DNA of 64,000 nt from a virus (Duplodnaviria > Caudoviricetes). Shown here one piece after another: positions 2,540 to 47,710 of this stretch. The position numbers were made by a program, and so were the translations under genes. The notes under the pieces are model-generated. The model searched no databases, was not told the origin of the DNA, and worked only from the letters and a program-made list of their open reading frames with translations. The stretch lies in the IMG/VR virus record IMGVR_UViG_3300032285_001531; one strand, 5' to 3'. The first letter of the stretch is position 1, and every line of letters begins with the position of its first letter.

Positions 2540-3337
2540 ATGGACCATTATACTACATTAGGGGTTAGCAGAAATGCAAGCCCCGACGAAATCAAACAAG
2601 CGTATAGAAAATTAGCAAGTGTACATCACCCAGACAAAGGTGGTGACACTGCTAAGTTTCAAGAAATACAACAAGCCTATGAAACATTAGGTGATCCAAG
2701 TAAAAAAGCAGAATATGATAACCCTCATCAAAACTTTGGTGGATTTGGTGGCGGCTTTGGTGGTGGATTCCCACAAGGCTTTGGATTCAGTGGCGGCATC
2801 AATATTGATGACATTTTTGGTCAGATGTTTGGTCGTCAACAACACACTCATTTCCCAACATATAAGACTATATTGAATGTTACACTAGAACAAGTGTACA
2901 ACGGTGATGAACAAGTATTACAATTTCAAACTCATGTAGGGAATCAAGTAGCTAGAATCAATATCCCTAAAGGTGTTGAGAACGGGCAACAAATGCGCTA
3001 CGATAATCTTATTCCAAATGCAACATTAATCGTTGAGTTTAGAGTTTACCCACATGATAAATTTCAAAGACAAGGGCTAAATTTGCAATCTGAGGTTGGT
3101 ATATCAGTATTAGATTTAATCATAGGTACTACTATTGATTTTGAAACTATTTCAGGTAAGAAGTTTCAAGTAACAGTTAAACCTAAAACACAACCTAATA
3201 CTACACTAAGAATACCTCAACAAGGTATGATTCATGGGCATGTAACAGGAGACCAATTAATATTGTTAAAACCATTTATTCCTGCTACAATCAGTGATGA
3301 AATAATCAGTGCAATTATTCGCAATCAAAACAACTAA
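2540..3337 (+). CDS. dnaJ: DnaJ/CbpA-like co-chaperone (J domain, G/F-rich region, C-terminal domain, no zinc finger)
   Basis: DHYTTLGV...AYRKLASVHHPDKGG (HPD motif), G/F-rich linker, DnaJ_C-like IPKGV and LRIPQQGM. Confidence 0.92.
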   Translation: MDHYTTLGVSRNASPDEIKQAYRKLASVHHPDKGGDTAKFQEIQQAYETLGDPSKKAEYDNPHQNFGGFGGGFGGGFPQGFGFSGGINIDDIFGQMFGRQQHTHFPTYKTILNVTLEQVYNGDEQVLQFQTHVGNQVARINIPKGVENGQQMRYDNLIPNATLIVEFRVYPHDKFQRQGLNLQSEVGISVLDLIIGTTIDFETISGKKFQVTVKPKTQPNTTLRIPQQGMIHGHVTGDQLILLKPFIPATISDEIISAIIRNQNN

Positions 3338-3347
3338 GGATCAATAC

Positions 3348-11636: not shown

Positions 11637-11644
11637 GATAAATA
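11637..11644 (+). promoter_or_regulatory. Late-promoter-like GATAAATA
   Basis: Immediately after the terminator and 5 nt before the ATG at 11650. Confidence 0.7.
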
Positions 11645-11649
11645 CACTT

Positions 11650-12516
11650 ATGAACCTTAAGGAATTAGCTAATTTTAAACTGCATGACGCAATATTTTTT
11701 CACGACCAATTGAATCCAGCGATTTTTGAGAGTGAGAAAATGCGTCCCTATGTACGTGACCAACTCATTTTAATAGCAGAAGATTTTATTGACCATTTAG
11801 GAATCAGTGATATTGACGTAACAGATGTTACATTATCAGGGTCAAATGCAGCATACACTTATACAATGCATAGCGATATAGATTTGCACATTTTAGTTGA
11901 TATGAGCAAACTCAATAACGATATGATATACCGTGAATTCTTTGATGCTAAAAAGACAATTTACAATGACTCACATGACATTACCATTAGTGGATATGAA
12001 GTAGAACTATATGTACAGGATACTAATGATCCTGTTGTTTCATTAGGTGAATATAGCGTACTACATGACAAGTGGATCCGTTTGCCAAAGAAAAGTCGTG
12101 CCAATCTAGATCAAAATGCCAGTCGCTTAAAGTTTGATAAATTATATCATTTAGCACATTTAGCATTGAAACATAATGACATGGATAAGATTGAGAATGT
12201 CATAAAAACAATTAAGAAATATCGTCAGAATGGCTTAGATATGCATGGCGAGTTTGGTCCTGAAAATTTAGCATTTAAAGCATTACGTAGTAAAGGTATA
12301 ATTGAACAATTATACAATAGATTAAATTCCTTGCATAGCGAGAAACTAAGTTTACCAGAAGCTAGTGGATACATTCCAAGCAAAAAAGAAAAGAATGATC
12401 CACGATTTAAAACTGCTCTTACTGTAGATATAACCCCAAACAGTATAAGAGACAATGCAAGAAAATTGGGAAGTAAAATAAGCAGAGCAGGTGTACCGCC
12501 TACTCTAAGACCATAA
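11650..12516 (+). CDS. Pol-beta superfamily nucleotidyltransferase
   Basis: LSGSNAAYTY..SDIDLHILVD and a third acidic residue in VELYVQD. Start moved to ATG 11650. Confidence 0.8.
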   Translation: MNLKELANFKLHDAIFFHDQLNPAIFESEKMRPYVRDQLILIAEDFIDHLGISDIDVTDVTLSGSNAAYTYTMHSDIDLHILVDMSKLNNDMIYREFFDAKKTIYNDSHDITISGYEVELYVQDTNDPVVSLGEYSVLHDKWIRLPKKSRANLDQNASRLKFDKLYHLAHLALKHNDMDKIENVIKTIKKYRQNGLDMHGEFGPENLAFKALRSKGIIEQLYNRLNSLHSEKLSLPEASGYIPSKKEKNDPRFKTALTVDITPNSIRDNARKLGSKISRAGVPPTLRP

Positions 12517-31998: not shown

Positions 31999-32006
31999 GA
32001 TAAATA
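31999..32006 (+). promoter_or_regulatory. Late-promoter-like GATAAATA
   Basis: Intergenic; heads the 32030-35308 run. Confidence 0.65.
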
Positions 32007-32029: not shown

Positions 32030-33109
32030 ATGAAAATAAACTCATTACTAGAATCTACAACATCAGGATCAGTAGCATCAGTCTCTACTCCTGTTGGAAA
32101 AATGCAAAAACGTGGAGGGTCTATGTTTAAGGGAAAAACTACTAACAAACCCTTTTACGAAGAAAAGAAGGACTGCGGCTGCCCTGCTGAATGCACATGC
32201 AGAAAAGTAGATGAAGCATTTGATACTACTAATCCAAAAGAATATCTCATTACTGTTCATCATCAAACACAAGATGGAGAGAGTGGTAAAGCTGAATATA
32301 AAATTACTAAGGCAAATGATGCCCGTCATGCTAAAAATATAGCAATGCTTAGGCATAGAAATGCGTTAGAAGTTAAAGGTATTAAATCCAAATCAATGCA
32401 TTGTAGTAGTCAAGATGTTAAAAATGTAGACGAAGGTGCAATGCCCCAATCAGTAATCAGAGCCAAAGAGAATATTCGTATGGCCAGCGATGAAGAAAAC
32501 AAGAAACGTTTTGCTGGTAAAACTAAAGAAGAATTAGCAAGCATGGCACGTAGACATGGTTATAAAGATAAAAATCCTTATGCTAAATTTCATGACGGTA
32601 AAACAGGAATCAATGAAGGTTCAATTAGTAACGCATTAGTTGCAGTAGAGGAAGCTAGACTAAGCGAAGAAGATTTAATTTTAATGCCAGGACAAGGTGT
32701 TAGATTCAAAAAAGAATTAATGCCAAAGAAAACAGACCATGAAATTGAAATGGCACGTGGTCAATTATATCAATCAGCAAAAAATGCAAAAGACATCTGT
32801 GGCATGCTAAAAGGTATCAGCGAAATACAAGGCATTGACGCATGGGTACAATCAAAAATTACCACAGCAGCAGACTACCTAGAAACAGTACGTGCATATT
32901 TAGAATCTAAGTATGAAATGCAACATGAAATTGATGAGGCTACCCCACGTGAAAAATTTAACAAGGGTTTGAAAAAAGCAGGATACGATCCACATAAAGG
33001 TGCAGATCGTTTGTTGGCATTACTTGCTAAACAAGCAGAAGAACGCAAGAAGTTTGAAAAAGAACTGCCTTTTGTTTATGGTGATAAAGACAAGGATGAA
33101 CAGAAATGA
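32030..33109 (+). CDS. Modular hypothetical protein, probable head-internal protein
   Basis: N-terminal MKINSLLE; short modules delimited by xxE motifs; helical DHEIEMARGQL...WVQSKIT.AADYL module. Confidence 0.7.
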   Translation: MKINSLLESTTSGSVASVSTPVGKMQKRGGSMFKGKTTNKPFYEEKKDCGCPAECTCRKVDEAFDTTNPKEYLITVHHQTQDGESGKAEYKITKANDARHAKNIAMLRHRNALEVKGIKSKSMHCSSQDVKNVDEGAMPQSVIRAKENIRMASDEENKKRFAGKTKEELASMARRHGYKDKNPYAKFHDGKTGINEGSISNALVAVEEARLSEEDLILMPGQGVRFKKELMPKKTDHEIEMARGQLYQSAKNAKDICGMLKGISEIQGIDAWVQSKITTAADYLETVRAYLESKYEMQHEIDEATPREKFNKGLKKAGYDPHKGADRLLALLAKQAEERKKFEKELPFVYGDKDKDEQK

Positions 33110-34371
33110 GAGCATTTGAATTTTTAATTGAGAACGAAGAAGCTGCATCAAATTTACCAGGTGCAGTTAATGGAGTTAAGATTATGACACCGCAACAATT
33201 TGTTGGTGACGAAGAAGAAGTGGATGAAGCTACTAAACTACCTGCACCACAAAAACAATTTGGTGGGCAAGAGTTTCAGGACTACATGCAACGTATTGTA
33301 GGTACGCCTGATATTGATAAAAAAACTGGTCAACCTAAAGTAGATAAAAAGGGCAAAGAAAAGTATGTGTCTGGTAAATTAAAAACAGACAAGTTTAAAA
33401 TGCCATATATCCATCGTAGCAGTGTTGTTGAATACTATGATGAAAAAGGTAAGAAATTCAATGAAGATGCAGTTATTAATGCATTGAAAGTGCGCAAAGA
33501 TTCATTGTTGAAACAAAATGAAAAAATGAAGCACAGTAATGGTGCATTAGAGCAGTTCTTCAATGTAGGCTTTGCAGCACTAACAGGTATCGCAGTAGAT
33601 GAAAGCACTGATAAGTTAATCATTGTTAATACTTGTCCAGGTGCCGGTGCATGTAAAGTAGATTGCTTTGCTATGAAGGGCGGTAAGATTCAATTTAAAG
33701 GTGGTTGGTTAAGTGATGGTCGTATTCTAACAGAATTACTAAATGACCCGCAGGGTTTCAGTAGTAGACTATCAAATGAGATTGCTAAAGAAGAAGCATT
33801 AGGTAAAAAAGGTGGCTATAGTGTTACAGTGCGTTGGCATGACGCAGGTGATTTCTTTAGTCCTGAATATTTGGACCTAGCATTAGATATTGCAAAGCGT
33901 TTCCCTAATGTTAAATTCTATGCTTATACTAAAATGGCTGGTGCAGCACTAGCAAATAAGCCAAGTAACTTTATCATCAACTGGTCAGAAGGCGCACATA
34001 CTTCACAAGAGAAACAAATCAAATCACAAGATCCACAGTTGACGCAGACTAAGAACAGTCGTATTGTTCCTGAGAAACTATTTTGGGACTTACTAAAGAA
34101 AGACGAGAAAGGCAACCTAGACAAAGAGGGTGCTAATGCTAAAGGTGAAGGTGGTCGTTGGGTAACAAGCGGACCAGAAGCAACACAAGAACTAAAACAA
34201 CGTTTAGCACAAGCATATGGTCTAAGTGCAAACAGTATTCTGTCATATGATGAGTACATCTCTAAAGGCAAAAACTCTCCTATGAAGTGGAACGTTATAG
34301 TTGCACCTGGTGAGGGTGATCTTAGCGCAAATGATCCAAACGTATTAAGTACATTATTATTGAGGCACTAA
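33106..34371 (+). CDS. GP88-like (radical-SAM-like) phage protein
   Basis: TCPGAGACKVDCFA (CX5CX3C), VRWHDAGDFFS, FYAYTK; N-terminal MRAFEFLIE. Confidence 0.75.
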   Translation: MRAFEFLIENEEAASNLPGAVNGVKIMTPQQFVGDEEEVDEATKLPAPQKQFGGQEFQDYMQRIVGTPDIDKKTGQPKVDKKGKEKYVSGKLKTDKFKMPYIHRSSVVEYYDEKGKKFNEDAVINALKVRKDSLLKQNEKMKHSNGALEQFFNVGFAALTGIAVDESTDKLIIVNTCPGAGACKVDCFAMKGGKIQFKGGWLSDGRILTELLNDPQGFSSRLSNEIAKEEALGKKGGYSVTVRWHDAGDFFSPEYLDLALDIAKRFPNVKFYAYTKMAGAALANKPSNFIINWSEGAHTSQEKQIKSQDPQLTQTKNSRIVPEKLFWDLLKKDEKGNLDKEGANAKGEGGRWVTSGPEATQELKQRLAQAYGLSANSILSYDEYISKGKNSPMKWNVIVAPGEGDLSANDPNVLSTLLLRH

Positions 34372-34372
34372 A

Positions 34373-34816
34373 ATGTTAGCAGATAGTTTAAAAGTAGTAT
34401 TAGCAAGTAGTTTCACTTTTTATTTAAAAGCACACAACTTTCATTGGAACGTTGAAGGTTCCAATTTCTCAGAATATCATAAATTTTTGGATGAGTTGCA
34501 AGCTGAAGTGTTTGAGAATGCGATTGACCGTAGCGCAGAATTTATTCGTGTACTTGACCATTATGCTCCAGGTAGCTTGACACGTTTTCATGAATTAAGT
34601 ATAATTGAAGATCAGGTAAAAGTACCACGTGCTGAGTTAATGATTGCTGAATTATACGAAGATAATGCCAAAATCATTGAGATGTTAAAGCAAGTGTTTA
34701 CAATAGCAGAAGAAGCTAACGAAGAAGGCATTGCCAATTTCATAGCAGAACGTATTGATGCACATGGTAAACATTCATGGATGCTACGTAGTTTTCTCAA
34801 AACAAATAGAGAATAA
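34373..34816 (+). CDS. dps: Dps/ferritin-like DNA protection protein
   Basis: FYLKAHNFHWNVEG..F...H, DRSAEFIR, K..WML.S. Confidence 0.93.
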   Translation: MLADSLKVVLASSFTFYLKAHNFHWNVEGSNFSEYHKFLDELQAEVFENAIDRSAEFIRVLDHYAPGSLTRFHELSIIEDQVKVPRAELMIAELYEDNAKIIEMLKQVFTIAEEANEEGIANFIAERIDAHGKHSWMLRSFLKTNRE

Positions 34817-34875
34817 TGGATCCAAACAACACACCAGACAATGATTTACCTGTAATACCTTATGGGGAACATTAA
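34816..34875 (+). CDS. Putative 19-aa microprotein MDPNNTPDNDLPVIPYGEH
   Basis: TAATG overlaps with both neighbouring genes. Confidence 0.55.
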   Translation: MDPNNTPDNDLPVIPYGEH

Positions 34876-35093
34876 TGGAAGAAATCACATCAGATAACAT
34901 CGATCAAATGAGGGAGAAGTTTAAGCCTAAGAAAAAGGCTAACATTATTCCAGAAGAATTGATGAGCAAATCTGCAAGTTATGATGACAAACTACTCTTA
35001 GCTAAACTTCTTTCCGAAAAAGAAAGTAAACGAGTAATCTTAGTTATAAAACAAATGCTTAAAGCAGATAGTAGTAAATCAGGGATCAAATAA
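34875..35093 (+). CDS. Hypothetical protein
   Basis: 72-aa ORF, coupled on both sides. Confidence 0.7.
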   Translation: MEEITSDNIDQMREKFKPKKKANIIPEELMSKSASYDDKLLLAKLLSEKESKRVILVIKQMLKADSSKSGIK

Positions 35094-35308
35094 TGGTTGC
35101 CGAAATGTTGATGTATGGCTTTGTTAGTGCCTTTGGATGGTGGGGAGCAAATCATTATATTATTGAACCACACCTTGAATCTAAACCTGTATTAATGGAA
35201 AAAGAAAAGCAAGAACAGAAATGCACTGACTGGGAAGAAAAAAAGAATCCAGACGGAACGATTAATAGATTTAGAACCTGCGAATCGTTATCAAAGACTT
35301 CACCTTAG
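35093..35308 (+). CDS. Small hypothetical membrane-anchored protein
   Basis: Hydrophobic N-terminus; C-terminal Cys pair. Confidence 0.7.
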   Translation: MVAEMLMYGFVSAFGWWGANHYIIEPHLESKPVLMEKEKQEQKCTDWEEKKNPDGTINRFRTCESLSKTSP

Positions 35309-35370
35309 GACCGTGAGGGCGCGGCTGCTGCGTTATCCAGAGGAGTCGTGCCCCGAGGGTAAAAGTGAGC
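35299..35370 (+). ncRNA. Candidate structured RNA in the desaturase leader
   Basis: GC-rich multi-stem element in an AT-rich genome; no family assigned. Confidence 0.45.
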
Positions 35371-35380
35371 CTAACTAATT

Positions 35381-36085
35381 ATGACAATACTACTTTATAC
35401 ACTAATCACTACACACATTACAATTCTATGTGTCACACTATTTTTACATCGTGGACAAGCACATAAAGGATTTGTATTTCATCCTACATTAAGTCACTTC
35501 ATGCGTTTTTGGCTATGGCTTACAACTGGGATGATTACAAAAGAATGGGTAGCAGTACATAGAAAACATCATCAACTTACTGACATACAAGGTGATCCAC
35601 ATAGCCCACATGTATATGGTATACAGAAAGTAATGATTGAAGGTGCATTATTATATCATGAAGCAGCAAAAGACGAGAACATGGTAAAGCATTATGGAGT
35701 AGGAACTCCTGATGACTGGGTAGAACAAAACGTATATACTAAACATAGTAAGTTAGGAATCAGTTTACTATTAGTATTAGACATGCTATTCTTTGGGTAT
35801 TGGGGAGTAGTAGTTTGGGGAATACAAATGATATGGATACCCTTCTGGGCTGCAGGAGTTATTAATGGCTTAGGACATTGGTATGGATATCGCAATACTG
35901 ACACTAAAGACTTCTCTACAAACATCACAAAAATAGGTATTGTTGTGGGTGGAGAAGAACTACACAACAATCATCACGCTGAACCCGCAAATCCAAAATT
36001 CAGCAGAAAATCCAATGAATTTGATATCGGTTGGCTATATTTTCGCATATTTTCTCTTTTAGGTCTTGCTACGCTACGAGACTAA
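35381..36085 (+). CDS. Delta-9-type membrane fatty-acid desaturase
   Basis: His boxes HRGQAH, HRKHH and HNNHH; DPHSP; FDIGW. Confidence 0.93.
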   Translation: MTILLYTLITTHITILCVTLFLHRGQAHKGFVFHPTLSHFMRFWLWLTTGMITKEWVAVHRKHHQLTDIQGDPHSPHVYGIQKVMIEGALLYHEAAKDENMVKHYGVGTPDDWVEQNVYTKHSKLGISLLLVLDMLFFGYWGVVVWGIQMIWIPFWAAGVINGLGHWYGYRNTDTKDFSTNITKIGIVVGGEELHNNHHAEPANPKFSRKSNEFDIGWLYFRIFSLLGLATLRD

Positions 36086-36088
36086 AAC

Positions 36089-36096
36089 GATAAATA
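36089..36096 (+). promoter_or_regulatory. Late-promoter-like GATAAATA
   Basis: 5 nt before ATG 36102; heads the 36102-42689 run. Confidence 0.7.
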
Positions 36097-36101
36097 TATG
36101 A

Positions 36102-36986
36102 ATGAGAATTACCGATTTTAAAATACACGATACCGAAAAACTAGACCATATACTAGTAAAACTCTGCCAAATGGTTATTAATGGCCAAAAGCAGGATAGT
36201 GACTATTTTGGTATGGTTGCTGCTTGTGTCCTAGACACCCATAATGAAGAAGTCTGTGCCCTAAACTATGTAGTAAAAGACGGCAAACATGTACATGCAG
36301 AACGAGCAGCAATAGACAAATATCACAAACAATATGGTGATATTCCAGCTGGTAGCATTATCATTACAACTTGCAGTCCATGCAGTGAAATGATGACTGA
36401 GCGTTACGGAGATTCTTGTACTAACTTAATAGAAGAAGTTGGTGTACATAAAGTATATTGCGGATACGAAGATCCTACACAAGATAGCAGTGAAAATTAT
36501 GTTCATAAAACATTCCATGTAAAACAAACCCGCAATGAAAAGATTATAGAACTATGCAAATCGTTTGCGGACACTTTCTTAGAAAAAGAAAAGATTGCTG
36601 AAACTAAACATATTATGGAAGAAATTAGAAAAGTCAATGCAGATGAGTTAACTCCAAAGTTTGTTGCATGGGCTAGTAAAATACTAAAATTAGAAACTAC
36701 ACCAGAAATAGAATTAAGCTACGATACAGAAGAAGCGCAAGACGGACATCATACTGGTCGTCATACTGAAGGTGATAACAAAGTTTGGGTATATGCTAAG
36801 AACAGAAACTTAGTTGACATATATCGTACAATATTCCATGAATTAGTTCACGTAAGACAAGGTGAATTAAACATGATTAAGCCCGGTGATAGTTATCCCG
36901 GCAGTCCAATAGAACAACAAGCTGATGTACTTGCAGGTAAGTATATCAAAGTATTTGGAGCAGAACATCCGGAGATTTTTCAATGA
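36102..36986 (+). CDS. Zn-dependent deaminase domain fused to a zincin (HExxH) domain
   Basis: HAERAAI, TCSPC...C and VYCGYEDP; C-terminal IFHELVHVRQ...E.QAD. Confidence 0.8.
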   Translation: MRITDFKIHDTEKLDHILVKLCQMVINGQKQDSDYFGMVAACVLDTHNEEVCALNYVVKDGKHVHAERAAIDKYHKQYGDIPAGSIIITTCSPCSEMMTERYGDSCTNLIEEVGVHKVYCGYEDPTQDSSENYVHKTFHVKQTRNEKIIELCKSFADTFLEKEKIAETKHIMEEIRKVNADELTPKFVAWASKILKLETTPEIELSYDTEEAQDGHHTGRHTEGDNKVWVYAKNRNLVDIYRTIFHELVHVRQGELNMIKPGDSYPGSPIEQQADVLAGKYIKVFGAEHPEIFQ

Positions 36987-39061
36987 AGATTAAAAACGTT
37001 ATAAGCGAAGATTTACCCCCACCAGAAAATGCACGTAAGACACAGATTGCTGGCACATTACCTACATACAAGAAGGCAGCTGCCATGCTTGATAAGACAG
37101 GTGTAAAGGGCAAGGCATTAGACTTTGGTGCAGGATTAGGTTTAGGCACAGGTGAGTTAGGAAAAGATGCAGAAAGCTATGAGCCTTATCCAGGCGAAAA
37201 GTTCAAGCCACACTTTGTCGATGTAACACAGATACCAGATAATGCATATCATAAGATTGTAAACTTAAATGTATTGAATGTTGTTCCAAATGCAGGTGAT
37301 CAAAGAATACGTGATGCCATTGTTAAGAACATTGGTCGTGTACTAGCACCAGGTGGTGTAGCAATTATTACTACACGTGGTAAAGATGTATTAACTATCA
37401 AAGGTACTCCTGGCGAAGAGCCAATGAGCATGATTAGTAAGATAGGTACATATCAAAAAGGCTTCTCGCAAACTGAACTAAAACAATATGTTCAAAGTGT
37501 ATTAGGTGACGGCTTTGATGTATCTAGTGTTAAGTTAGGCCCAGCTGGTGTAATGATTAAGAAACATGACCAGTATAACGAAGAATGGAGTGCCAAATAC
37601 AAGCGTAGTATTAATTGTAGTCATCCAAAAGGATTTAGTCAAAAAGCACATTGTGCTGGTAAGAAGAAGCACAATGAAAGTGTTGAGATGGAAATGGTAT
37701 GTGAAGATTGCGGCATGTGCCAAACACACGGAGATAATACAAAAGATAAATTAGATGAGTTGAAATGCTGGTCTGGATATCATAGAGTTGCCGGTACCAA
37801 AGCAGGCTTTCCGGGTAGTTGTGCAAAAAATAAAACTAACGAGGAACAAGATATGTCAGAAGGTCGTGAACAATGTCCTGAATGCGGTGGTGCAATGTAT
37901 TCAGAAGAAATGATTAATGAAAAGAAAGATGCTTGCTACTATAAAGTAAAAAGCCGTTACAAAGTATGGCCAAGTGCCTATGCTAGTGGTGCATTAGTTA
38001 AGTGCCGTAAAAAGGGTGCAAGTAATTGGGGTAATAGTACTAATGAAGATATCGTTTCAGAATATGTAGACCAATTAGATGAGAATTTACATCAGTGGTT
38101 TAAAGAAAAATGGGTACGATTTGGTCCAGATGGTAAGATACGTGGTGATTGTGCTAGAGGTGATGACAGTGAGGGTAAGCCAAAATGTTTACCACAGAGT
38201 AAAGCACACAATTTAGGTAAAAAAGGTCGTGCAAGTGCAGCATCAAGAAAGCGCAGAGAAGATCCTAATCCAGAGCGTACTGGTCCAGCAATCAATGTTA
38301 ACACTAAGAAAAAATCAAATGAAGGTATGGCAGAAGCAACCGGAGACAAGCCATTTGATAATATGATGAAGGGCATTGTTAAAGGTACTACAAAACAAGC
38401 TACTGCTGATCGTAAAGAAAAAGAAAAACAAAGTCAAGAAAGAGCAAGAGCCGCATTTGGAAATATGTTTGGCGGTGGTAATCCTGCAGACAAACTAAGT
38501 ATCAGAAAAAAAACTGACGAAGGCAACGATTTTAACAGAATGATGAATAAGATTAGTTCTTCAGAATCATTGCACACTAGAGAAGCATTAGAACTAATGT
38601 CTGAACTTATGCATCAAGCAGGTGCATCATACAAAGAAGCACTACAGCAAGCAAGTTTAAGTTTTGAAATTGAACCTTCTAAATTACATAAGTTATATCA
38701 GCAAGAAATCACTAGTCTAGAAGAAGGTGAGACATGGGCAAAGCATAACAACCCACGTGCTGGTGGCATGAGTAAGAAATCAGTAAACAGTTATCGCCGT
38801 AGCCATCCTGGCAGTAAAATACAAACAGCAGTTACTACTAAGCCAAGTAAGTTAAAGAAAGGTAGTAAAGCAGCTAAACGCCGTAAGAGTTTCTGCGCTA
38901 GAATGCGTGGCATGAAGAAACATCGTACTGGTGCAAAGACAGCGAGAGATCCAAATAGCAACATCAATAAGTCATTACGTAGATGGCATTGCGAAAGCAT
39001 TGAACAAATGCAAGAGTTGGTAATGTTAGCCGAACAGTTTATTGCAAAACATAAAAAATGA
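36983..39061 (+). CDS. Class I SAM methyltransferase fused to a chain of short basic Cys/His modules
   Basis: ALDFGAGLG, VNLNVLNVVP and TYQKGF; then the modules INCSHPKGFSQKAHC, KKDACYYKVKSRYKVWPSAYAS, WFKEKWV...KPKCLP and RRKSFCARM. Confidence 0.8.
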   Translation: MKIKNVISEDLPPPENARKTQIAGTLPTYKKAAAMLDKTGVKGKALDFGAGLGLGTGELGKDAESYEPYPGEKFKPHFVDVTQIPDNAYHKIVNLNVLNVVPNAGDQRIRDAIVKNIGRVLAPGGVAIITTRGKDVLTIKGTPGEEPMSMISKIGTYQKGFSQTELKQYVQSVLGDGFDVSSVKLGPAGVMIKKHDQYNEEWSAKYKRSINCSHPKGFSQKAHCAGKKKHNESVEMEMVCEDCGMCQTHGDNTKDKLDELKCWSGYHRVAGTKAGFPGSCAKNKTNEEQDMSEGREQCPECGGAMYSEEMINEKKDACYYKVKSRYKVWPSAYASGALVKCRKKGASNWGNSTNEDIVSEYVDQLDENLHQWFKEKWVRFGPDGKIRGDCARGDDSEGKPKCLPQSKAHNLGKKGRASAASRKRREDPNPERTGPAINVNTKKKSNEGMAEATGDKPFDNMMKGIVKGTTKQATADRKEKEKQSQERARAAFGNMFGGGNPADKLSIRKKTDEGNDFNRMMNKISSSESLHTREALELMSELMHQAGASYKEALQQASLSFEIEPSKLHKLYQQEITSLEEGETWAKHNNPRAGGMSKKSVNSYRRSHPGSKIQTAVTTKPSKLKKGSKAAKRRKSFCARMRGMKKHRTGAKTARDPNSNINKSLRRWHCESIEQMQELVMLAEQFIAKHKK

Positions 39062-39969
39062 GAGCAATAGAGTTTTTAGTAGAGTATGATCGTGCTAAGA
39101 CGATGATGAACTTAGGTAATATCCTACATCAAAAAATGTTGAAGGATCGTACTGTACAACGTATATTCGGTGATGACCCTGTAGAGATAATCGATCCGGC
39201 TGTGATAATTGAATTTGCATTAGATAGATTTCAAGAGGCAGATCCTAGTCCTAACAAACAATATGTTCAATGGATAGCAAGAACCTATGCTAAAGATCCT
39301 AACTTCAAATTTGAAGATGTATTAAGTACTGTTCATCCATACTTAGAAAAGTTTTATAAACTAATCAAACGTAAAAAGATTCCTAGTCCACAAAACGATA
39401 TAAACAAGTATTCTGATTTTAAAGTTTTTATGGGAGTACTGGATCAATTTCCTGATCCAGACGGTGAAGCAATACAAAAAGATAAAGGTCATGCTTTCAC
39501 ACTATACGAAGATGATAAGTGGAGAGTTATAGTACCACAAGATGAACCAGCAGCATGTTATTATGGTCAAGGCTCACGTTGGTGTACTAGTGCAACCAAA
39601 GCTAGAAACATGTTTAGCTATTATAATAATATATCTCCATTGCTTATTGCGATTCCAAAAGATCCATTTCATCCAGGTGAGAAGTATCAATTACACTTTG
39701 GTATATCAATTGATGATTACCCAATGAAAAGTGATAGTGATATAGAAGATTATATTAATCAAAATGATGACATGTCTGATTCAGGACTTGATGAAGTACT
39801 TGAGTATGGTCAAATAATGGATGAGCATGATGATCCAATGTCATTCTATGATATGACACGTAGATTGGGTGGTAGTTGGGATGGAATTATTGACGCATAC
39901 ATTGCTAAATTCCCAGATCGTAAATGGCAATTACTTATGAATTTAGAACAAGTTGAAGGTCGTGATTAA
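39058..39969 (+). CDS. PcfJ-like (WCT-motif) protein
   Basis: AACYYGQGSRWCTSA motif with a downstream KYQLHF; N-terminal MRAIEFLVE. Confidence 0.65.
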   Translation: MRAIEFLVEYDRAKTMMNLGNILHQKMLKDRTVQRIFGDDPVEIIDPAVIIEFALDRFQEADPSPNKQYVQWIARTYAKDPNFKFEDVLSTVHPYLEKFYKLIKRKKIPSPQNDINKYSDFKVFMGVLDQFPDPDGEAIQKDKGHAFTLYEDDKWRVIVPQDEPAACYYGQGSRWCTSATKARNMFSYYNNISPLLIAIPKDPFHPGEKYQLHFGISIDDYPMKSDSDIEDYINQNDDMSDSGLDEVLEYGQIMDEHDDPMSFYDMTRRLGGSWDGIIDAYIAKFPDRKWQLLMNLEQVEGRD

Positions 39970-42689
39970 TGAGAGCAACTGAGTTCATCACAGAAGCATT
40001 TGATAAGCCCTATGCATATAACTGGCAGCGTGGTGATCATGGTGATTACGATATACTAGTTAAATTACCAGACGGTTCACCACTAAACATTTCATTCAAT
40101 CACGAAGGTGATGACGTATGGCATGTTGCATTTGATCGTGGGCATAGTCAAGAAATCACTGGTGAAGGTGATGCACAAAGAATATTTGCCACAGTATTAC
40201 ACAGCATTAAACAATTCATTGGTAAACAACATCCAGAGAAGTTATATTTCTCTGCAAGCAAACAAGTTGAACCAGGGCAACGCAGCGAGAGCAGAGCGAA
40301 TTTATATAGTAGAATGATCAAGCGTTATGCTAGTTCTATGGGATATGACTCTGTTACTGATGACTTTGGTAGAGATAGTGTAACGTATATACTAAACAAA
40401 AAGCAAGGTGTGACAGAAGATACCGAAAACAGCATGTCTACTGAAGATATGATTGCTTATCTAAGACAACACCATGATAGTAATCTTCATCAGGACTACA
40501 TAAATCACTTAAACACATTCAGTAAGTTTGTACTACGAGATATTCCAGTGAACACAATTAAAACAGAGTTACCTGGCCTAGATAAAGCAAAAGTAGAACA
40601 ATATAAAAAAATGGATTTCAGCAAGGCACCTCCTATTGTAATGGGAAATGGTCATATCTTAGATGGTTATCACAGAACAACAGTAGCAAAAGCATTAGGT
40701 ATTCCTACTATCAAAGGTTATGTTGGTATTAAACATCAAGGTGTGGCGGAAGGCTCGGAAAACAATGGAATTAGTTTCAAGGTACAAAAAGGTAAAAACA
40801 AATTTGCAACTACTTTAAGTGTTGGTGTCAACCCAGTAGGAGTATACCAATATGATGCTGATACAGGTCGTAGTGTGGCCGAGGTTTATCCAGAATTCAA
40901 AGGCAAAGGATTAGGTAAATTATTAGTTTTACATGCTATCTATACCGCGGCCAAATTGGGATTAGATTTCCAAGAAGATGAATCAAGAACTTCAGAGTAT
41001 GATAATGTATTAGATAGTTTGAGTAGCAACGGTTATATTGTAGATGACGATGGTTATTGGTATGTTACCGGCGAAGGTGAACAATATCTACAACAAGCAT
41101 TAAAGCAAGATGTGGCGGAAGGCTCATTAAACGAAATTTACAAAATGCCGCCTACTAAAGATAGTAGTCAAGGAATGGCAATTTGGGCTTACAATGATGC
41201 AGTAGAAAAAAAGTCGCCTGTGTTTTATAGAGATAACAATGTAATAATTTTCAAATTCAATGAATATTTACTGCGATATATCATATTGCAAGATGGAAAC
41301 CCTGTGTTATATATCGGGTTAAGTAGATTCCTTGATGGATATAAATCCGGTACTGTTGCTACTGAAATAGAAGGGCGCGGCAAGGGTCTGGCACAAAAAG
41401 CATATTTGAATGCCAGTGATATTTTAGGTGTACCAATATATAGTGATACCACACAAACTGATGCAAGTAGGTTGGGTATATGGGATAAACTGATTCAACA
41501 ATATCCAGATAGAATTGTTGGGTACGATCAAAAAACTAACAAGGATTTACCTTTGTCAATGTCTGATAAAGGACCAATAGTGAATCAAAACCAACCAATA
41601 TATGTTAACAATAAAGATACTAATAAACCAATAGCACCAAATCAACGATATAGAACAAGAATTTTAAAACTACTACCTATCAAGCAAGGTGTGGCAGAAG
41701 GCAGAGAAAATTATAATGGTATAAATTTGTTACTTCAGCGAGATGATGATGAAGTTTTTGTTAAAGCCTCAGCAGGTGGTAGAGAATTAGGTCATGTATT
41801 GTTTGTAGATGAAGGTGACTACTTAATGCCACAAGACCTAGAAGTTGATGAACGTTTTCAAGGTCAAGGTATTGCTCAAACAATGTATGACTATGTTAAA
41901 AGCAAAGGATATAAGATACGCCGTAGTGGTCAGCAAACTGCTGCAGGTGCAGGCTTCTGGGACAAACATCGCCCTGAACAGAATGTTTGGGAAGGTACAG
42001 CAGACGATATTAACAAAATGTTTAACAACATGTATGATCCGTTGACAACAAATTTACAACGTGTAGCATTGATGGCTATGCAGGGTAGACAAGATGAAGC
42101 GGGAATGCAGTTGAATCGTGTAATCAAAGATGCAAGTCCAGAAGCACAAAAGAAAATTATTGATGCTGTAAACAATATCAAACCAGTAACAATCAATGGC
42201 AAAGTAGCAGACAGTTCAACATTAGATAAAAGTCATACACATCAAGACTGGATCTTAAACACATTTATTCCTTGGGTAAAGAAAACTATTGGTCATCAAG
42301 ATGTTACTGAAGATGCAACACCTACAATGGGTATCAATGTAAGAAGTGACGGTGATATTGACTATGCTAGTTTAATCATTGATGGCAAGAAAAAATATGA
42401 ATCTCGTCAGACTGATAGTCTTAGACCATATGTTGGTAAAACAGTTGCAATTGTTAGAACTGGTAAAGGTCCTGCAGTTGCAATTGGTCAAGTAACAGTA
42501 GGTGACCCAATTGTAGTAGATGCAGAAAAGTTTGACAAAATGCGCAAACAACATTTAGTACCACAAGGCAGCAAGTTTGATATAGGTATCGATGCTACCA
42601 AATATCTATATCCAATGATTAATCCAGTTCGTTGGGATAATGAAAAACTAGTAAAACAAAAAGGTATTGTTGCTAGAAAGATTGATTAA
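39969..42689 (+). CDS. Modular polyprotein: GNAT-like domains, ParB/Srx-like domain, ASCH domain
   Basis: PPIVM....LDGYHR; V.PEFKGKGLG, E.RGKGLAQ and VDERFQGQGIAQ.MY (GNAT motif A); YASLIIDGKKKYESR (ASCH). Confidence 0.8.
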   Translation: MRATEFITEAFDKPYAYNWQRGDHGDYDILVKLPDGSPLNISFNHEGDDVWHVAFDRGHSQEITGEGDAQRIFATVLHSIKQFIGKQHPEKLYFSASKQVEPGQRSESRANLYSRMIKRYASSMGYDSVTDDFGRDSVTYILNKKQGVTEDTENSMSTEDMIAYLRQHHDSNLHQDYINHLNTFSKFVLRDIPVNTIKTELPGLDKAKVEQYKKMDFSKAPPIVMGNGHILDGYHRTTVAKALGIPTIKGYVGIKHQGVAEGSENNGISFKVQKGKNKFATTLSVGVNPVGVYQYDADTGRSVAEVYPEFKGKGLGKLLVLHAIYTAAKLGLDFQEDESRTSEYDNVLDSLSSNGYIVDDDGYWYVTGEGEQYLQQALKQDVAEGSLNEIYKMPPTKDSSQGMAIWAYNDAVEKKSPVFYRDNNVIIFKFNEYLLRYIILQDGNPVLYIGLSRFLDGYKSGTVATEIEGRGKGLAQKAYLNASDILGVPIYSDTTQTDASRLGIWDKLIQQYPDRIVGYDQKTNKDLPLSMSDKGPIVNQNQPIYVNNKDTNKPIAPNQRYRTRILKLLPIKQGVAEGRENYNGINLLLQRDDDEVFVKASAGGRELGHVLFVDEGDYLMPQDLEVDERFQGQGIAQTMYDYVKSKGYKIRRSGQQTAAGAGFWDKHRPEQNVWEGTADDINKMFNNMYDPLTTNLQRVALMAMQGRQDEAGMQLNRVIKDASPEAQKKIIDAVNNIKPVTINGKVADSSTLDKSHTHQDWILNTFIPWVKKTIGHQDVTEDATPTMGINVRSDGDIDYASLIIDGKKKYESRQTDSLRPYVGKTVAIVRTGKGPAVAIGQVTVGDPIVVDAEKFDKMRKQHLVPQGSKFDIGIDATKYLYPMINPVRWDNEKLVKQKGIVARKID
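40404..42314 (+). repeat. Dispersed 15-18 nt linker repeat encoding Q-[GD]-V-[AT]-E-[GD]
   Basis: Copies at 40404, 40737, 41106, 41685 and 42297, plus degenerate QNVWEG at 41979. Three copies match CAAGRTGTGGCRGAAGGC. Confidence 0.9.
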
Positions 42690-42701
42690 TCTCCAATTTA
42701 G

Positions 42702-42730
42702 TTGTATTCTTAACACATTTCTGCTATAAT
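42702..42730 (+). promoter_or_regulatory. Sigma70-type promoter TTGTAT-17 nt-TATAAT (TG-extended -10)
   Basis: Exact 17-nt spacer; TGC before the -10; ATG at 42737. Confidence 0.8.
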
Positions 42731-42736
42731 AATCTT

Positions 42737-43348
42737 ATGAACAAGATTGGCAATTTTGAATCCATTGGTTGTGATTGTGAGTTTGGATTGGTTCAACGAA
42801 CCTTGAATTACGAACCTATGACTTTATTAAGATGGTCTAGTATAAATTTACACAGTTTAGTTAGAATGATTGACGATGATTTTAAAGATTTAAAAAATAT
42901 TGATACATATGATATTGATAGAAATGACGATTTAGAATACATGGTTACTAATACAAGTTATCATCTTTGGTCACATACTGACACACGACATGACACTTCC
43001 AAATCTGAATTAATAGAATCATCCTTCAAACGAATAAATTATTTGCAACGTCAATTTGTAAAGGAAGCAAAAAATAATAAAAAAATATATGTTCACAAAT
43101 CTAAAAGTATTACTACTGAAGAAATGCAATTATTATATAATGCAATGAAATCATTAGGTGCTGATAGAATTTTATTTGTACTAAAAGACATTGACCTAAA
43201 AAATACGTTTGTTGAATCAGAATTTGGTTTGATTGCTTACATATCTGATTTTTATCCAAACACAAAGTTTGATGAATGGGAATCTATTCTTGATTATGCA
43301 CTTGAGTACTTTAATGAAAATAACATATCCCATAATAAATCAGTCTAA
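42737..43348 (+). CDS. DUF1796-like putative papain-like peptidase/hypothetical protein
   Basis: N-terminal FESIGCDCEFG and RRI..L-like SFKRINYL pattern. Confidence 0.5.
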   Translation: MNKIGNFESIGCDCEFGLVQRTLNYEPMTLLRWSSINLHSLVRMIDDDFKDLKNIDTYDIDRNDDLEYMVTNTSYHLWSHTDTRHDTSKSELIESSFKRINYLQRQFVKEAKNNKKIYVHKSKSITTEEMQLLYNAMKSLGADRILFVLKDIDLKNTFVESEFGLIAYISDFYPNTKFDEWESILDYALEYFNENNISHNKSV

Positions 43349-44741: not shown

Positions 44742-45011
44742 ATGGATACTATTGAATCAAGAACCTTTACCCTCGATCAAAAGACAAAGCTTACCCAAAT
44801 TATCAATGAAGGTATGGCAGTAATGCAAGAGATTGATGACTTGAATGGTGGCTTATCAGACACTATTAAAGCAGTAGCAGAAGAAATGGAAATCAAACCT
44901 AGCGTATTAAAGAAAGCTATTCGTGTAGCACACAAAATGGAATTAGGTAAAACTCAACAAGAGCAAGAATTACTAGAAAACATTCTCACAACTGTAGGAA
45001 AAACTCTTTAA
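44742..45011 (+). CDS. T4 DsbA/GapR-like double-stranded DNA-binding protein
   Basis: Helical pattern I.EG..V..EI.DL...L.DTIKAVAEE.EIKP..L.KAI..AHK. Confidence 0.65.
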   Translation: MDTIESRTFTLDQKTKLTQIINEGMAVMQEIDDLNGGLSDTIKAVAEEMEIKPSVLKKAIRVAHKMELGKTQQEQELLENILTTVGKTL

Positions 45012-47710
45012 TGTATGTAGACGCAATTCACGACAGGGATAATGATAAAATCCATGTCGTAGAACGTACACCTGACGGCAAACGCAGATATCAAGAATAT
45101 CCTGCGAACTATGTGTTATATTACAGTGATCCTAAAGGCAAGTATCGTAGCCTCTATGGTGATTCAGTAAGCAGATTCAGTACACGTAAGCGTGGTGAAT
45201 TTGAAAAGGAACGTAGAATACAATCAAACAAACAATTGTTTGAGAGTGATATTAATGTGGTGTTTAGATGTCTAAGTGACAACTATCTTAATGTTGATGC
45301 TCCTAAACTACATACTTGTTTCTTTGACATTGAGGTTGACTTTGATCCTGACAAAGGATTCAGTCCAACTACAGATCCATTCAATCCAGTAACAGCAATC
45401 TCATTATACTTAGATTGGCAAGACTTACTGGTCACACTATGTATTGCACCAAAGCATATGAGTGATGAAACTGCATGGGAAATAACAAAGAAGTTTGAAA
45501 ACTGTTTGTTATTTAAAACCGAAACAGAAATGTTCGAAACCTTTTTTCAACTTATTGAAGATGCAGATGTAATGACTGGTTGGAACTCAGAGGGATATGA
45601 TATACCTTACATGGTTAATCGTGTCACTAGAGTAATGAGTAAAGATGATACACGTAGATTTTGTCTATTAGGTCAACTACCTAAGCCTAGAACATATGAA
45701 CGTTTTGGTAAAGAAGAACAAACATACGACTTGATTGGTCGTATTCATATGGACTATTTGCAATTGTATAAGAAGTATAACTACGAATCACGACATAGCT
45801 ATAAACTAGATGCAATTGGTGAGATGGAAGTTGGTGAGAACAAAACTCAATACGAAGGTACCCTTGATCAATTATACAATAAAGACTGGGAAAAGTTCTT
45901 GGAGTATAACAGACAAGATACGATGTTGTTAGTTAAGATTCACAATAAATTAAAATTCTTAGACCTAGCAAATGCACTAGCACATGAAAATACTGTGCTG
46001 TTGCCAACTGTTATGGGTTCAGTTGCAATGATTGAACAGGCTATTTTTAATGAAGCACATGAACGTGGATTAGTTGTACCTGACAAAAATAGAAAGGAAC
46101 ACAATGATGAACAACAAGCAGCAGGTGCCTATGTTGCTACGCCGAAAAGAGGCATGCACGAATATGTTGGTGCCGTCGATATCAACTCGCTCTATCCCTC
46201 GGTTATTAGGGCCCTCAACATGGCGCCAGAAACAATTGTCGGTCAAGTTAGACAAACCCTAACTAATCAATACATGCGAGATAAAGGTCTACGTCTTGCA
46301 ATGGAAAAGAAAAGATATAAAGAAGGTGATGATGAAGTTACCGGTAGTGTACTATGGGAGGGATTATTTAGTGCGTTAGAGTATACCGCAGTAATGAATC
46401 AAGAACGTGGCACTATATTAACTATTGATTTTGAAGATGGTCGTAGTGAAGAACATAGTGCTGCTGAAATATGGAAGATGATATTTGATAGCAATAGACC
46501 ATGGATGCTTAGTGCTAACGGTACAATCTTTACATACGAACAAGAAGGAGTTATTCCTGGTCTATTATCACGTTGGTACAGTGATCGTAAAGACATGCAA
46601 AAGAAACTCAGAGAATCAACTACTGATGAAGATAAAGAGTACTGGGATAAACGACAATTGGTTCGTAAGATTTTACTTAACTCTGCATACGGTGCATTGT
46701 TGAATGAACATTGTCGTTTCTATGATAAGCGTATTGGTCAAAGTGTTACATTAAGTGGTCGTCAAATTGTTAAACACATGATGAGCCAAATCAATGAATG
46801 TATCGCAGGTGACTATAACCATGAAGGTGAAGCAATTGTTTATGGTGATACTGACTCATGTTATTTCTCAGCATACAGTGTATTGAAACCTGAAATAGAT
46901 AAAGGTGAAGTACAATGGGATAAAGATATGTGTATTCAATTGTATGACAATATCGCAGACCAAGCTAATGAAAGTTTTCCTGCATTTATGGAGAAAGCAT
47001 TTCATGCTCCTCGTAAGAATGGTGCAATCATTAAAGCAGGTCGTGAACTGATTGGTGATCGTAGTATCTTTATTACAAAGAAGCGTTATGCTATTAATAT
47101 CTATGACAAAGAGGGTAAGCGTAAAGATACAAACGGTAGTACTGGGCAAATTAAAGCTATGGGTTTAGATTTGAAACGTGCTGACACGCCTAAATATGTA
47201 CAAGAGTTTTTGATGAGTGTATTGCAATGTGTACTAGATGGTGGCACACGTGATACCGTAATTGATATGATTAAAACATTTAAATTGCAATTGGCTCAAC
47301 AAGAACCTTGGACTAAAGGTAGCCCTAAATCAGTGAATAAGTTAACTATGTATGGTGACAAAGAAAAGGCAGCAGGTAAAACTAACATGCCTGGTCACGT
47401 AAGAGCAGCGTTAAACTATAACTATTTGCGTAATGCTAATAGTGACAACTATAGTCAAAAGATTGTAGATGGTATGAAAATTGTAGTATGTAAACTTAAA
47501 CCTAATCCATTAGGATATACAAGTATTGCATACCCAACTGACGAACTTAGATTACCTAAATGGTTCTGTGAGTTACCATTTGACGATTATGAAATGGAAA
47601 AAACACTAGTTGATGAAAAGATTGATAACTTGTTAGGAGTTATGAATTGGGACTTAAGAATAAGCACTGACGTTAATTCTACGTTTGATGACTTCTTTTC
47701 GTTCGGGTAA
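45011..47710 (+). CDS. polB: Family B DNA polymerase with 3'-5' exonuclease
   Basis: FFDIEVD, GWNSEGYD, YNRQD, DINSLYPS, KILLNSAYG, YGDTDS, KKRYA. Confidence 0.97.
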   Translation: MYVDAIHDRDNDKIHVVERTPDGKRRYQEYPANYVLYYSDPKGKYRSLYGDSVSRFSTRKRGEFEKERRIQSNKQLFESDINVVFRCLSDNYLNVDAPKLHTCFFDIEVDFDPDKGFSPTTDPFNPVTAISLYLDWQDLLVTLCIAPKHMSDETAWEITKKFENCLLFKTETEMFETFFQLIEDADVMTGWNSEGYDIPYMVNRVTRVMSKDDTRRFCLLGQLPKPRTYERFGKEEQTYDLIGRIHMDYLQLYKKYNYESRHSYKLDAIGEMEVGENKTQYEGTLDQLYNKDWEKFLEYNRQDTMLLVKIHNKLKFLDLANALAHENTVLLPTVMGSVAMIEQAIFNEAHERGLVVPDKNRKEHNDEQQAAGAYVATPKRGMHEYVGAVDINSLYPSVIRALNMAPETIVGQVRQTLTNQYMRDKGLRLAMEKKRYKEGDDEVTGSVLWEGLFSALEYTAVMNQERGTILTIDFEDGRSEEHSAAEIWKMIFDSNRPWMLSANGTIFTYEQEGVIPGLLSRWYSDRKDMQKKLRESTTDEDKEYWDKRQLVRKILLNSAYGALLNEHCRFYDKRIGQSVTLSGRQIVKHMMSQINECIAGDYNHEGEAIVYGDTDSCYFSAYSVLKPEIDKGEVQWDKDMCIQLYDNIADQANESFPAFMEKAFHAPRKNGAIIKAGRELIGDRSIFITKKRYAINIYDKEGKRKDTNGSTGQIKAMGLDLKRADTPKYVQEFLMSVLQCVLDGGTRDTVIDMIKTFKLQLAQQEPWTKGSPKSVNKLTMYGDKEKAAGKTNMPGHVRAALNYNYLRNANSDNYSQKIVDGMKIVVCKLKPNPLGYTSIAYPTDELRLPKWFCELPFDDYEMEKTLVDEKIDNLLGVMNWDLRISTDVNSTFDDFFSFG

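Follow-up and report, generated by a model that had tools for sequence, protein, structure and literature searches.

A block of genes with a shared N-terminal peptide

The stretch of viral DNA analysed here (IMG/VR record IMGVR_UViG_3300032285_001531, Caudoviricetes; 64,000 nt, referred to below as the window) carries all of its long open reading frames (ORFs) on the + strand. Between its large fibre-like genes and its DNA polymerase module lies a block in which five genes begin with a similar peptide, or tag, of 8–9 residues (Table 1). These tags end in LLE, LIE, ISE, LVE and ITE, with a hydrophobic residue at P3 and a glutamate at P1 of a predicted cleavage site, and they resemble the capsid-targeting sequence (CTS) of phage T4. 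A preliminary description of this DNA had reported the five N-termini, and all of them were read directly at their positions. It had also proposed that unrelated proteins share this short tag; indeed, the five protein bodies were dissimilar in all pairwise comparisons (no significant similarity, best E = 0.008 over 21 amino acids). The block had been described as ending at position 40000 and extends to 42689, where the last tagged gene stops.

The DNA polymerase of the window is 42–49% identical to those of Phosso, Atu_ph07, Vibrio phage 2.275.O, XaC1 and CBB. By this measure, Sinorhizobium phage Phosso (48.6%) and the Agrobacterium jumbo phage Atu_ph07 (46.5%) are the two closest cultured relatives, and identity remained below 50% against all phage records searched. 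A megablast of the block against phage records yielded no DNA-level match to any cultured phage, and a search of IMG/VR for an exact 47-mer was likewise negative. Relatives of one block gene are encoded by 487 IMG/VR stretches, which include complete genomes of 359–525 kb. We designate the complete relatives G001–G004 and give L-numbers to related loci. The window is syntenic with 105–143 kb of G002 (364,247 bp, with terminal repeats), and our related set consists of 85 IMG/VR loci with 1264 unique ORFs.

The tags were described by the loose motif M-[KRN]-x(2-3)-[EHQNSD]-[LFIVM]-x(1-2)-E. This motif matches 5 of the 64 gene starts of the window, every one of them within 32030–42689, when only ~0.15 would be expected from its frequency at internal methionines (1/433); it matches 6 of the 1568 open ATG contexts. 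Since the motif was built from these same five genes, independent tests carry more weight. Gene starts matching the motif were overrepresented in G002 (13 of 524 vs 2.4 expected, P = 1e-6) and in Atu_ph07 (19 of 829 vs 4.6 expected, P = 3e-7). In T4, used as a positive control, the motif recovered IPII, IPIII, a 54-amino-acid ORF (MKTFKEFIKE) and gp21, together with two likely false matches, which gauges how specific the motif is and indicates that T4 has only a small set. These results confirm that the shared tags are real.

Table 1. Features of the window. A slash marks the predicted cleavage site.
Feature	Position	Strand	Details
GATAAATA late-promoter-like motif	31999–32006	+	24 nt upstream of first tagged gene
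Tagged gene 1	32030–33109	+	359 amino acids, no Pfam family; tag MKINSLLE/STTSGS at 32030–32053
Tagged gene 2	33106–34371	+	421 amino acids, GP88-family Cys-cluster protein; tag MRAFEFLIE/N at 33106–33132
Dps/ferritin-like gene	34373–34816	+	untagged; Pfam Ferritin E = 4e-21
Fatty-acid-desaturase-like membrane protein gene	35381–36085	+	untagged; Pfam FA_desaturase 34 bits
Second GATAAATA motif	36089–36096	+	heads operon 36102–42689
Deaminase gene	36102–36986	+	294 amino acids, not tagged; Pfam dCMP_cyt_deam_1 and C-terminal HExxH domain
Tagged gene 3	36983–39061	+	692 amino acids, polyprotein; tag MKIKNVISE/D at 36983–37009
Tagged gene 4	39058–39969	+	303 amino acids, no Pfam family; tag MRAIEFLVE/Y at 39058–39084
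Tagged gene 5	39969–42689	+	906 amino acids, six-module polyprotein; tag MRATEFITE/A at 39969–39995
Linkers of gene 5	40404–40421, 40737–40754, 41106–41123, 41685–41702, 42297–42314	+	[KH]Q[GD]V[AT]E/[GD]
J-domain protein gene	2540–3337	+	overlaps the AAA+ gene
AAA+ gene	3309–5621	+	770 amino acids, double-AAA+ 'ATP-dependent protease' homologue
Multi-domain late protein gene	6810–10574	+	1254 amino acids
Nucleotidyltransferase-like gene	11637–12516	+	directly behind GATAAATA; likely start at 11650
Sigma-70 consensus	34577–34605	+	TTGACA, 17 nt, TATAAT
Hairpin	35310–35375	+	GC-rich, stem ~10 bp
ORF-free gap	42690–43232		~540 bp, GC content ~0.30
DNA polymerase gene	45011–47710	+

Conservation of the tag among relatives

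Two forms of the tag were found, M-R-A-x-E-F-[ILV]-x-E and M-K-I-x-x-[LV]-x-E. In the related loci, 219 of the 1264 ORFs (17%) are tagged, mostly with MRAxEF[ILV]xE, and one locus (L007) presents seven MRAxEF[IV]xE genes in a row. For the GP88-like protein of gene 2, which has more than 2,300 database homologues, 116 of the 120 closest homologues in the public collection are tagged at the starts called by the source pipelines, and ~80 IMG/VR orthologues are tagged as well. This cargo occurs with either form of the tag (MRYHEFITE/D, MKITELYE/G or MRAFEFLIE/N), which suggests that the two forms are equivalent or interchangeable. Relatives of gene 1 begin with MKINQIIVE/TSTTSGS or MKIKQLSE/TTAGAV, and the orthologues of gene 4 all begin with MRAxEF[LI]xE/Y, apart from three paralogues in the distant locus L084 that carry MK[LI][LI]QLLLE/Y. 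The latter is a lineage-specific version of the tag, as would be expected if it were read by a co-evolving partner.

At the nucleotide level, the 83 MRAxEF cases fall into 72 versions, and the codons for Ala, Glu, Phe and the hydrophobic residues vary synonymously. This variation, with the amino acids kept, indicates that selection acts on the peptide. The Arg codon is AGA in 70 of the 72 versions, which is partly due to overlaps of the type ATGA with the preceding gene.

Single-linkage clustering of the tagged proteins was uninformative, as shuffled domains chain them into two large clusters, and we used a tally of Pfam families instead. A non-redundant set of 78 tagged clade proteins comprised 24 Pfam families, including DUF6321, DUF6934, GNAT, GH19, Amidoligase_2, GP88, ART-PolyVal (2 of the 78), Fe/Mn superoxide dismutase, HicA and RegB-like. 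Outside the clade, the cargo families can be tagless: gp56 of Gilgamesh, an untagged member of the GP88 family, has no tag-like leader, and neither does ORF252 of Vibrio phage nt-1 carry a tag. The earlier proposal that existing enzymes were recruited by gaining a tag fits these tagless family members.

The homology of the N-terminal module of gene 5 to KVP40-like vibriophages was considered as evidence on the tag and rejected: it is the C-terminal half of ORF252 in nt-1 that is matched, which is uninformative on tags. Beside it, ORF253 of nt-1 (L114, 2919–3509) starts with MIEFLTE/A, and CTS-like tags may also mark the cargo loci of this KVP40-like relative of T4.

Polyproteins with glutamate-ended junctions

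Genes 3 and 5 encode multi-module polyproteins with internal Glu-ended junctions, which the preliminary description had missed. We searched the 20,724 residues of the window proteins for the linker motif [QKE][GD][VMI][ATS]E[GDAS] and found ten copies in three proteins: five in the product of gene 5, two in that of gene 3 (residues 289–294, QDMSE/G, and 447–452, EGMAE/A) and three in the multi-domain late protein at 6810–10574. The gene 5 protein was split at its linkers and the pieces were searched against relatives, where some copies of its modules immediately follow an N-terminal tag and others follow an internal junction with hydrophobic-x-Glu at its end. The DUF6934-like module follows MRAKEFIVE/AFDQPY in L007, SIAE/GFDQPY in G002 and DVTE/AFNQPY in L051; the GNAT module follows MRATEFITE/EAKNAKYNGL in L057 and KLSE/EAKASKYKGL in L070; and the ASCH module follows MRATEFIVE/NSIPTIGINV in L032 and KMTE/GSSNNIPTIGINV in L076. 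Similarly, the methyltransferase-like module of gene 3, which stands behind the tag in the window (MKIKNVISE/DLPPPEN), is internal to a 1140-amino-acid protein of G002, with the junction MTPELAE/DLPPPEN. Tags and internal junctions front the same modules and thus occupy equivalent positions, and the simplest reading is that both would be cut after the glutamate. If the tags are indeed capsid-targeting propeptides, polyproteins that are processed within the capsid would offer a means of loading many activities with one tag.

The multi-domain late protein, with linkers QDVSE/A, EGMSE/G and QDVSE/G, lacks an N-terminal tag of the canonical type and probably represents a further cargo polyprotein.

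Head genes of the complete relatives

All four complete relatives encode a protein of the Peptidase_S77 family (T4 gp21-type prohead protease, 94–99 bits), and its gene (in G002 at 285722–286357, minus strand) adjoins those of a coiled-coil scaffold protein and a capsid protein of the Gp23 type (330 bits). The capsid protein begins with MSxVLLE/[SG]RWDETKEALLE/G...VILE/N...LL[AS]E/S and the scaffold with M[LF]DAIKPLL[ED][ST], for example MLDAIKPLLE/S. Both starts resemble the tags of the type MKIxxLLE/[SG] and the N-terminus of T4 gp23 (KPLLEGEG). The T4 protease recognizes the site L/I-x-E. Cleavage after glutamate is common to all T4-related prohead proteases (PMC5694885). In T4, the CTS MKTYQEFIAE, which the gp21 prohead protease takes off as it does the gp24 propeptide, undergoes a single cut and makes the packaging of foreign proteins possible (Mullaney and Black 1996; PMC3012670; PMC5694885), and all internal head proteins enter the head via a CTS (PMC3012670; PMC5694885).

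Tagged proteins in the virions of Atu_ph07

Atu_ph07 possesses its own version of the tag, M[KR]W.[QD]L.E (MRWxQLxE) or MRL..LLE (e.g., MRLFQLLE). Its genes for gp53–63 are eleven consecutive tagged genes at their annotated starts, arranged in ATGA-coupled chains. The proteins detected in purified Atu_ph07 virions by electrospray ionization tandem mass spectrometry (ESI-MS/MS) are listed in Table S5 of Attai et al. 2018 (PMC6102473), and we matched them to ORFs by molecular weight (within 0.02 kDa) and gene order. The virion proteome contains 15 of the 19 motif matches of this phage, with 2 to 31 unique peptides each (P = 1e-7). All 15 ORFs that conform to the Atu_ph07 version of the tag are in the list, and the four unlisted matches do not fit that version; gp54, 57 and 58 are likewise listed. 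The tagged virion proteins are gp53–63, 381, 408, 482, 487, 548, 561 and 672. Thirteen of them belong to one paralogous family (~255 amino acids) and five are unrelated singletons, which gives at least six families. One of them, gp53 (L194, 485–2821, minus strand; tag MKWNDLNE/A), has a Zeta-toxin-type kinase domain, and a kinase is thus apparently carried in the particle. Such tags therefore mark virion proteins in this phage group, in the sense of presence in the virion.

Attai et al. 2018 make no mention of a shared N-terminus (PMC6102473). Our search of the literature that uses the term 'capsid targeting sequence' found nothing on this phage group and no published description, and the term is not used in a comparative review of jumbo phages.

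Operons and late-promoter motif

The tagged genes form two operons behind GATAAATA motifs, as had been described. The late promoter of T4 uses TATAAATA. In the window, ATAAATA is about three times rarer than expected (13 copies vs 41.5), and seven of the copies are preceded by G and lie 6–30 nt upstream of ORF starts. In G002, GATAAATA precedes fibre, head and tail genes in addition to the tagged operons. This distribution fits a role of GATAAATA as a late promoter with selection against stray copies, and the late-type expression that had been suggested for the tagged genes is supported by this motif at the level of sequence. Four of the five tagged genes start in an ATGA or TAATG overlap with the preceding stop, as gene 2 does with ATGA, which suggests that they are translationally coupled.

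An Rfam scan of the window detected no RNA family, and scans for sigma-70 promoters and terminators remained at background level. A perfect sigma-70 consensus occurs within the Dps-like gene, and two small ORFs (34875 and 35093) lie downstream of it. A hairpin (-31 kcal/mol, z = -2.2) with no Rfam match is located in the AT-rich gap between genes that precedes the desaturase-like gene; its core 18-mer is identical in L036, L037, L064 and L082. Another gene located behind GATAAATA is nucleotidyltransferase-like; it likely starts with MNLKELANFKL, and its relatives start with MNL[KR]ELDSFKL, which is tag-like and has no terminal Glu. In G002, a DUF6934-like module is inserted in this gene.

Genes of the block and their neighbours

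The labels that the preliminary description had attached to the tagged proteins fared unevenly. The GP88-like identity of gene 2 is well supported (PF17338, 85 bits vs a cut-off of 24.4, residues 135–301), and GNAT modules are found in the gene 5 polyprotein next to a DUF6934-like module, a ParB-like stretch (recognized by eye only) and an ASCH module. The gene 3 polyprotein combines methyltransferase-like, DUF5872 and DUF6321 parts; its methyltransferase match is present and falls below the Pfam cut-off (23.8 vs 27 bits). For gene 4, the PcfJ-like label (PF14284) did not hold, with no Pfam family detected even at E <= 5. The PcfJ lead itself is weak: the atlas feature match ranks 50 with a score of 0.89, and 26% of the cluster members carry PcfJ.

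The deaminase gene was considered as a sixth tagged gene and rejected, as its start, MRITDFKIHD, has no Glu at the cut position. Its orthologues retain MRxSDFxIH, likewise with no Glu at P1; in L016, the stretch lies within the deaminase domain, after NLRE/S. The HExxH domain alone sits behind canonical tags in many relatives, for example MRANEFLRE/S. Among the untagged genes, the Dps-like gene is found at the same position of the cargo operon in G002, L007 and L082; the desaturase-like gene lies between the two tagged operons, and its homologues are likewise placed in L007 and L082.

The cargo block is followed by an ORF-free gap, beyond which the next module begins. Elsewhere in the window, the overlapping J-domain and AAA+ genes form a pair that is kept in G002 and could encode a phage chaperone or unfoldase, possibly for assembly.

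Interpretation and alternatives

We consider it likely that the tags are T4-type capsid-targeting propeptides removed by the head protease, based on comparative evidence, on the equivalence of tag and linker and on the virion proteomics of a relative. Given the tagged virion proteins of Atu_ph07, the five tagged proteins of the window are very probably packaged cargo. The T4-like capsid targeting that had been proposed is supported in part, by the likeness of the tags, the gp21-type protease in relatives and the virion link in Atu_ph07; docking on the core, cleavage, a location in the head interior, ejection and any effector action of the enzymes in the host are inferred. The tagged genes would be transcribed late from GATAAATA promoters, and the tag would dock each protein onto the scaffolding core during prohead assembly. 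A gp21-type prohead protease would cleave after the terminal Glu of the tag (a hydrophobic-x-Glu site), and the same protease would cut the Glu-ended linkers of the two polyproteins, yielding separate enzyme modules inside the head. The released modules would then leave with the DNA at the next infection.

Several observations weigh against this interpretation. The virion support comes from Atu_ph07 and not from the phage itself or its clade, the window does not include the phage's own head genes, and no cargo is common to Atu_ph07 and the window. The Atu_ph07 table reports presence in virions purified with polyethylene glycol, not location in the head or removal of the tag, and that preparation includes a few unlikely proteins with one peptide each. 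The untagged Dps-like and desaturase-like genes share operons with tagged genes, and in the 85 related loci the density of linker motifs in tagged ORFs is only 2.6 times that in untagged ones. The ATGA overlap, in which 67 of the 83 MRA tags start, partly forces Lys or Arg at position 2. Finally, the motif was not enriched in Vibrio phage 2.275.O (6 matches vs 1.8 expected) or in Pectobacterium phage CBB (6 vs 3.9 expected), a result that holds for this motif only, as no motif-free search was made. These two phages may lack the system or use a version of the tag that the motif misses.

It is also conceivable that the tag docks proteins elsewhere on the virion than inside the head, for example at whiskers, tail, neck or capsid exterior; the tagged proteins would then serve as structural components or be displayed on the surface, and would not be injected. 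The proteome of Atu_ph07 does not show where in the virion its proteins sit, this phage has elaborate whisker-like appendages, and in the window the cargo block comes after large fibre-like genes. We nevertheless find such docking unlikely, given that the cargo consists of soluble enzymes and is not fibre-like, that the capsid and scaffold proteins of the clade begin with propeptides that the tag matches, as it also matches the T4 CTS and the gp24 propeptide, and that Glu-ended junctions suit a head protease acting inside proheads. Another alternative is that the tag acts solely as a signal for a protease or for degradation, with no part in packaging. It would be a propeptide of the zymogen type or an N-degron recognized by the phage AAA+ protein, and would thereby time the activity of the enzymes. 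The AAA+ 'ATP-dependent protease' homologue beside the J-domain protein, both kept in G002, would be available for this role, and hydrophobic-x-Glu sites alone could account for the last three conserved residues of the tag. A cut site, however, leaves the first six conserved residues unexplained; moreover, all Atu_ph07 proteins that conform to its version of the tag are in virions, and the tag resembles a peptide proven sufficient for packaging in T4. A role in proteolysis alone is therefore quite improbable.

We give least credence to the view that the conserved start is a feature of the nucleic acid, i.e., a context for translational coupling or initiation or a joint for cassette recombination, with a functionless peptide. 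This would explain the frequent ATGA overlaps and the near-uniform use of AGA, and tags and linkers lie exactly at the boundaries of modules that are shuffled among relatives. It is at odds with the synonymous variation at the Ala, Glu, Phe and hydrophobic positions, with the tag of the operon-first gene 1, which has no overlap, and with the internal junctions, which keep hydrophobic-x-Glu without any DNA motif; it also leaves the link to the Atu_ph07 virion proteome standing. A role in recombination may well coexist with the function of the peptide.

If the tags are capsid-targeting propeptides, a 9-residue motif would make it possible to tell from sequence alone which proteins are packaged, and probably injected, by hundreds of uncultured giant phages. 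The tagged set is rich in enzymes that could plausibly affect the defences or the physiology of the host as soon as infection begins, such as acetyltransferases, ADP-ribosyltransferases, the methyltransferase-like module, deaminase/zincin fusions and superoxide dismutase. More tentatively, and with some doubt, we suggest that these uncultured jumbo phages, a clade that is abundant in freshwater globally, load their heads at two levels, 'one tag, many cargoes': a single N-terminal tag would bring a whole polyprotein into the prohead, and cleavage of its hydrophobic-x-Glu linkers by the head protease would free many enzymes. Recombination at the joints of tags or linkers could add new modules, and the tag would be ancestral to all phages with a T4-type core. 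Its ancestry is suggested by the core of the T4 CTS (EF[IL]xE) and the gp24 propeptide (KINxLLxE/STT), which are recognizable despite a polymerase identity below 50%. If so, the tag would provide a portable and predictable way to recognize the injected proteome in phage genomes from metagenomes. This reading of the tag is open to testing in the cultured phage Atu_ph07.

Comparison with known systems

The polyvalent proteins known from phages and conjugative elements are large, combine 2–15 effector-type domains (ART, GNAT, methylase, ParB, peptidase), are encoded late and are predicted to be packaged and to be delivered together with the DNA (Iyer et al. 2017, PMC5512222). Similarly, at least two effector-type domains per polypeptide are present in the products of genes 3 and 5 and of the deaminase gene, and ART-PolyVal and Amidoligase_2 are among the tagged proteins of the clade. 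The cargo families (GNAT, ART-PolyVal, Amidoligase_2, GH19, HicA, RegB-like and superoxide dismutase) would suit the theme of injected effectors. In the window proteins, Pfam searches matched no PolyVal-specific family, i.e., none of the hallmark PolyVal domains. The two systems also differ in processing: built-in zincin or papain peptidases have been proposed for polyvalent proteins (PMC5512222), whereas here we find junctions like those cut by a head protease together with an N-terminal tag.

In the phiKZ-like phages SPN3US and 201phi2-1, ejection and inner-body proteins are processed by a T4-related protease at (S/A/G)-x-E (PMC5694885, PMC10052503). As proposed here, a gp21 homologue cleaves many proteins of the head interior after Glu, and the propeptides are thought to target the prohead. 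In contrast to the tags, these propeptides are mostly longer than 100 residues, share no common short tag and have a small residue at P3 (Ala/Ser/Gly), and the phages belong to another lineage. Atu_ph07 resembles the clade in its T4-type protease, scaffold and capsid protein and in its 8-residue tags ending in L-x-E, but it uses its own version of the tag, mostly on one paralogous family, and carries none of the cargo of the window.

The closest parallel is the CTS carried by the internal proteins IPI–III and Alt of T4: in both cases a short N-terminal peptide (8–10 amino acids) with a hydrophobic-x-Glu end is attached to unrelated proteins encoded by late genes. The core EF[IL]xE is shared (EFIAE in T4; EFLIE, EFLVE and EFITE here), the 10-residue propeptide of T4 gp24 (MAKINELLRE/STTTNS) is like the start of gene 1, and the head module of the gp21/gp22/gp23 type is seen here in the complete relatives. 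Several differences are nevertheless apparent. The window has five tagged genes in 10 kb and a complete relative ~10, whereas the same motif finds 3–4 in T4; two forms of the tag coexist; and the system described here is known from sequence alone. Its cargo consists mostly of multi-domain enzymes, and several cargoes are polyproteins with internal linkers that resemble cut sites, so that one tag could load many modules. If our interpretation is correct, the T4 capsid-targeting principle, which has already been used to package foreign proteins, would extend far beyond the T-even phages, and relative to the mechanism known from T4 it would operate on a far larger scale, with a cargo that is rich in enzymes and partly built of polyproteins.

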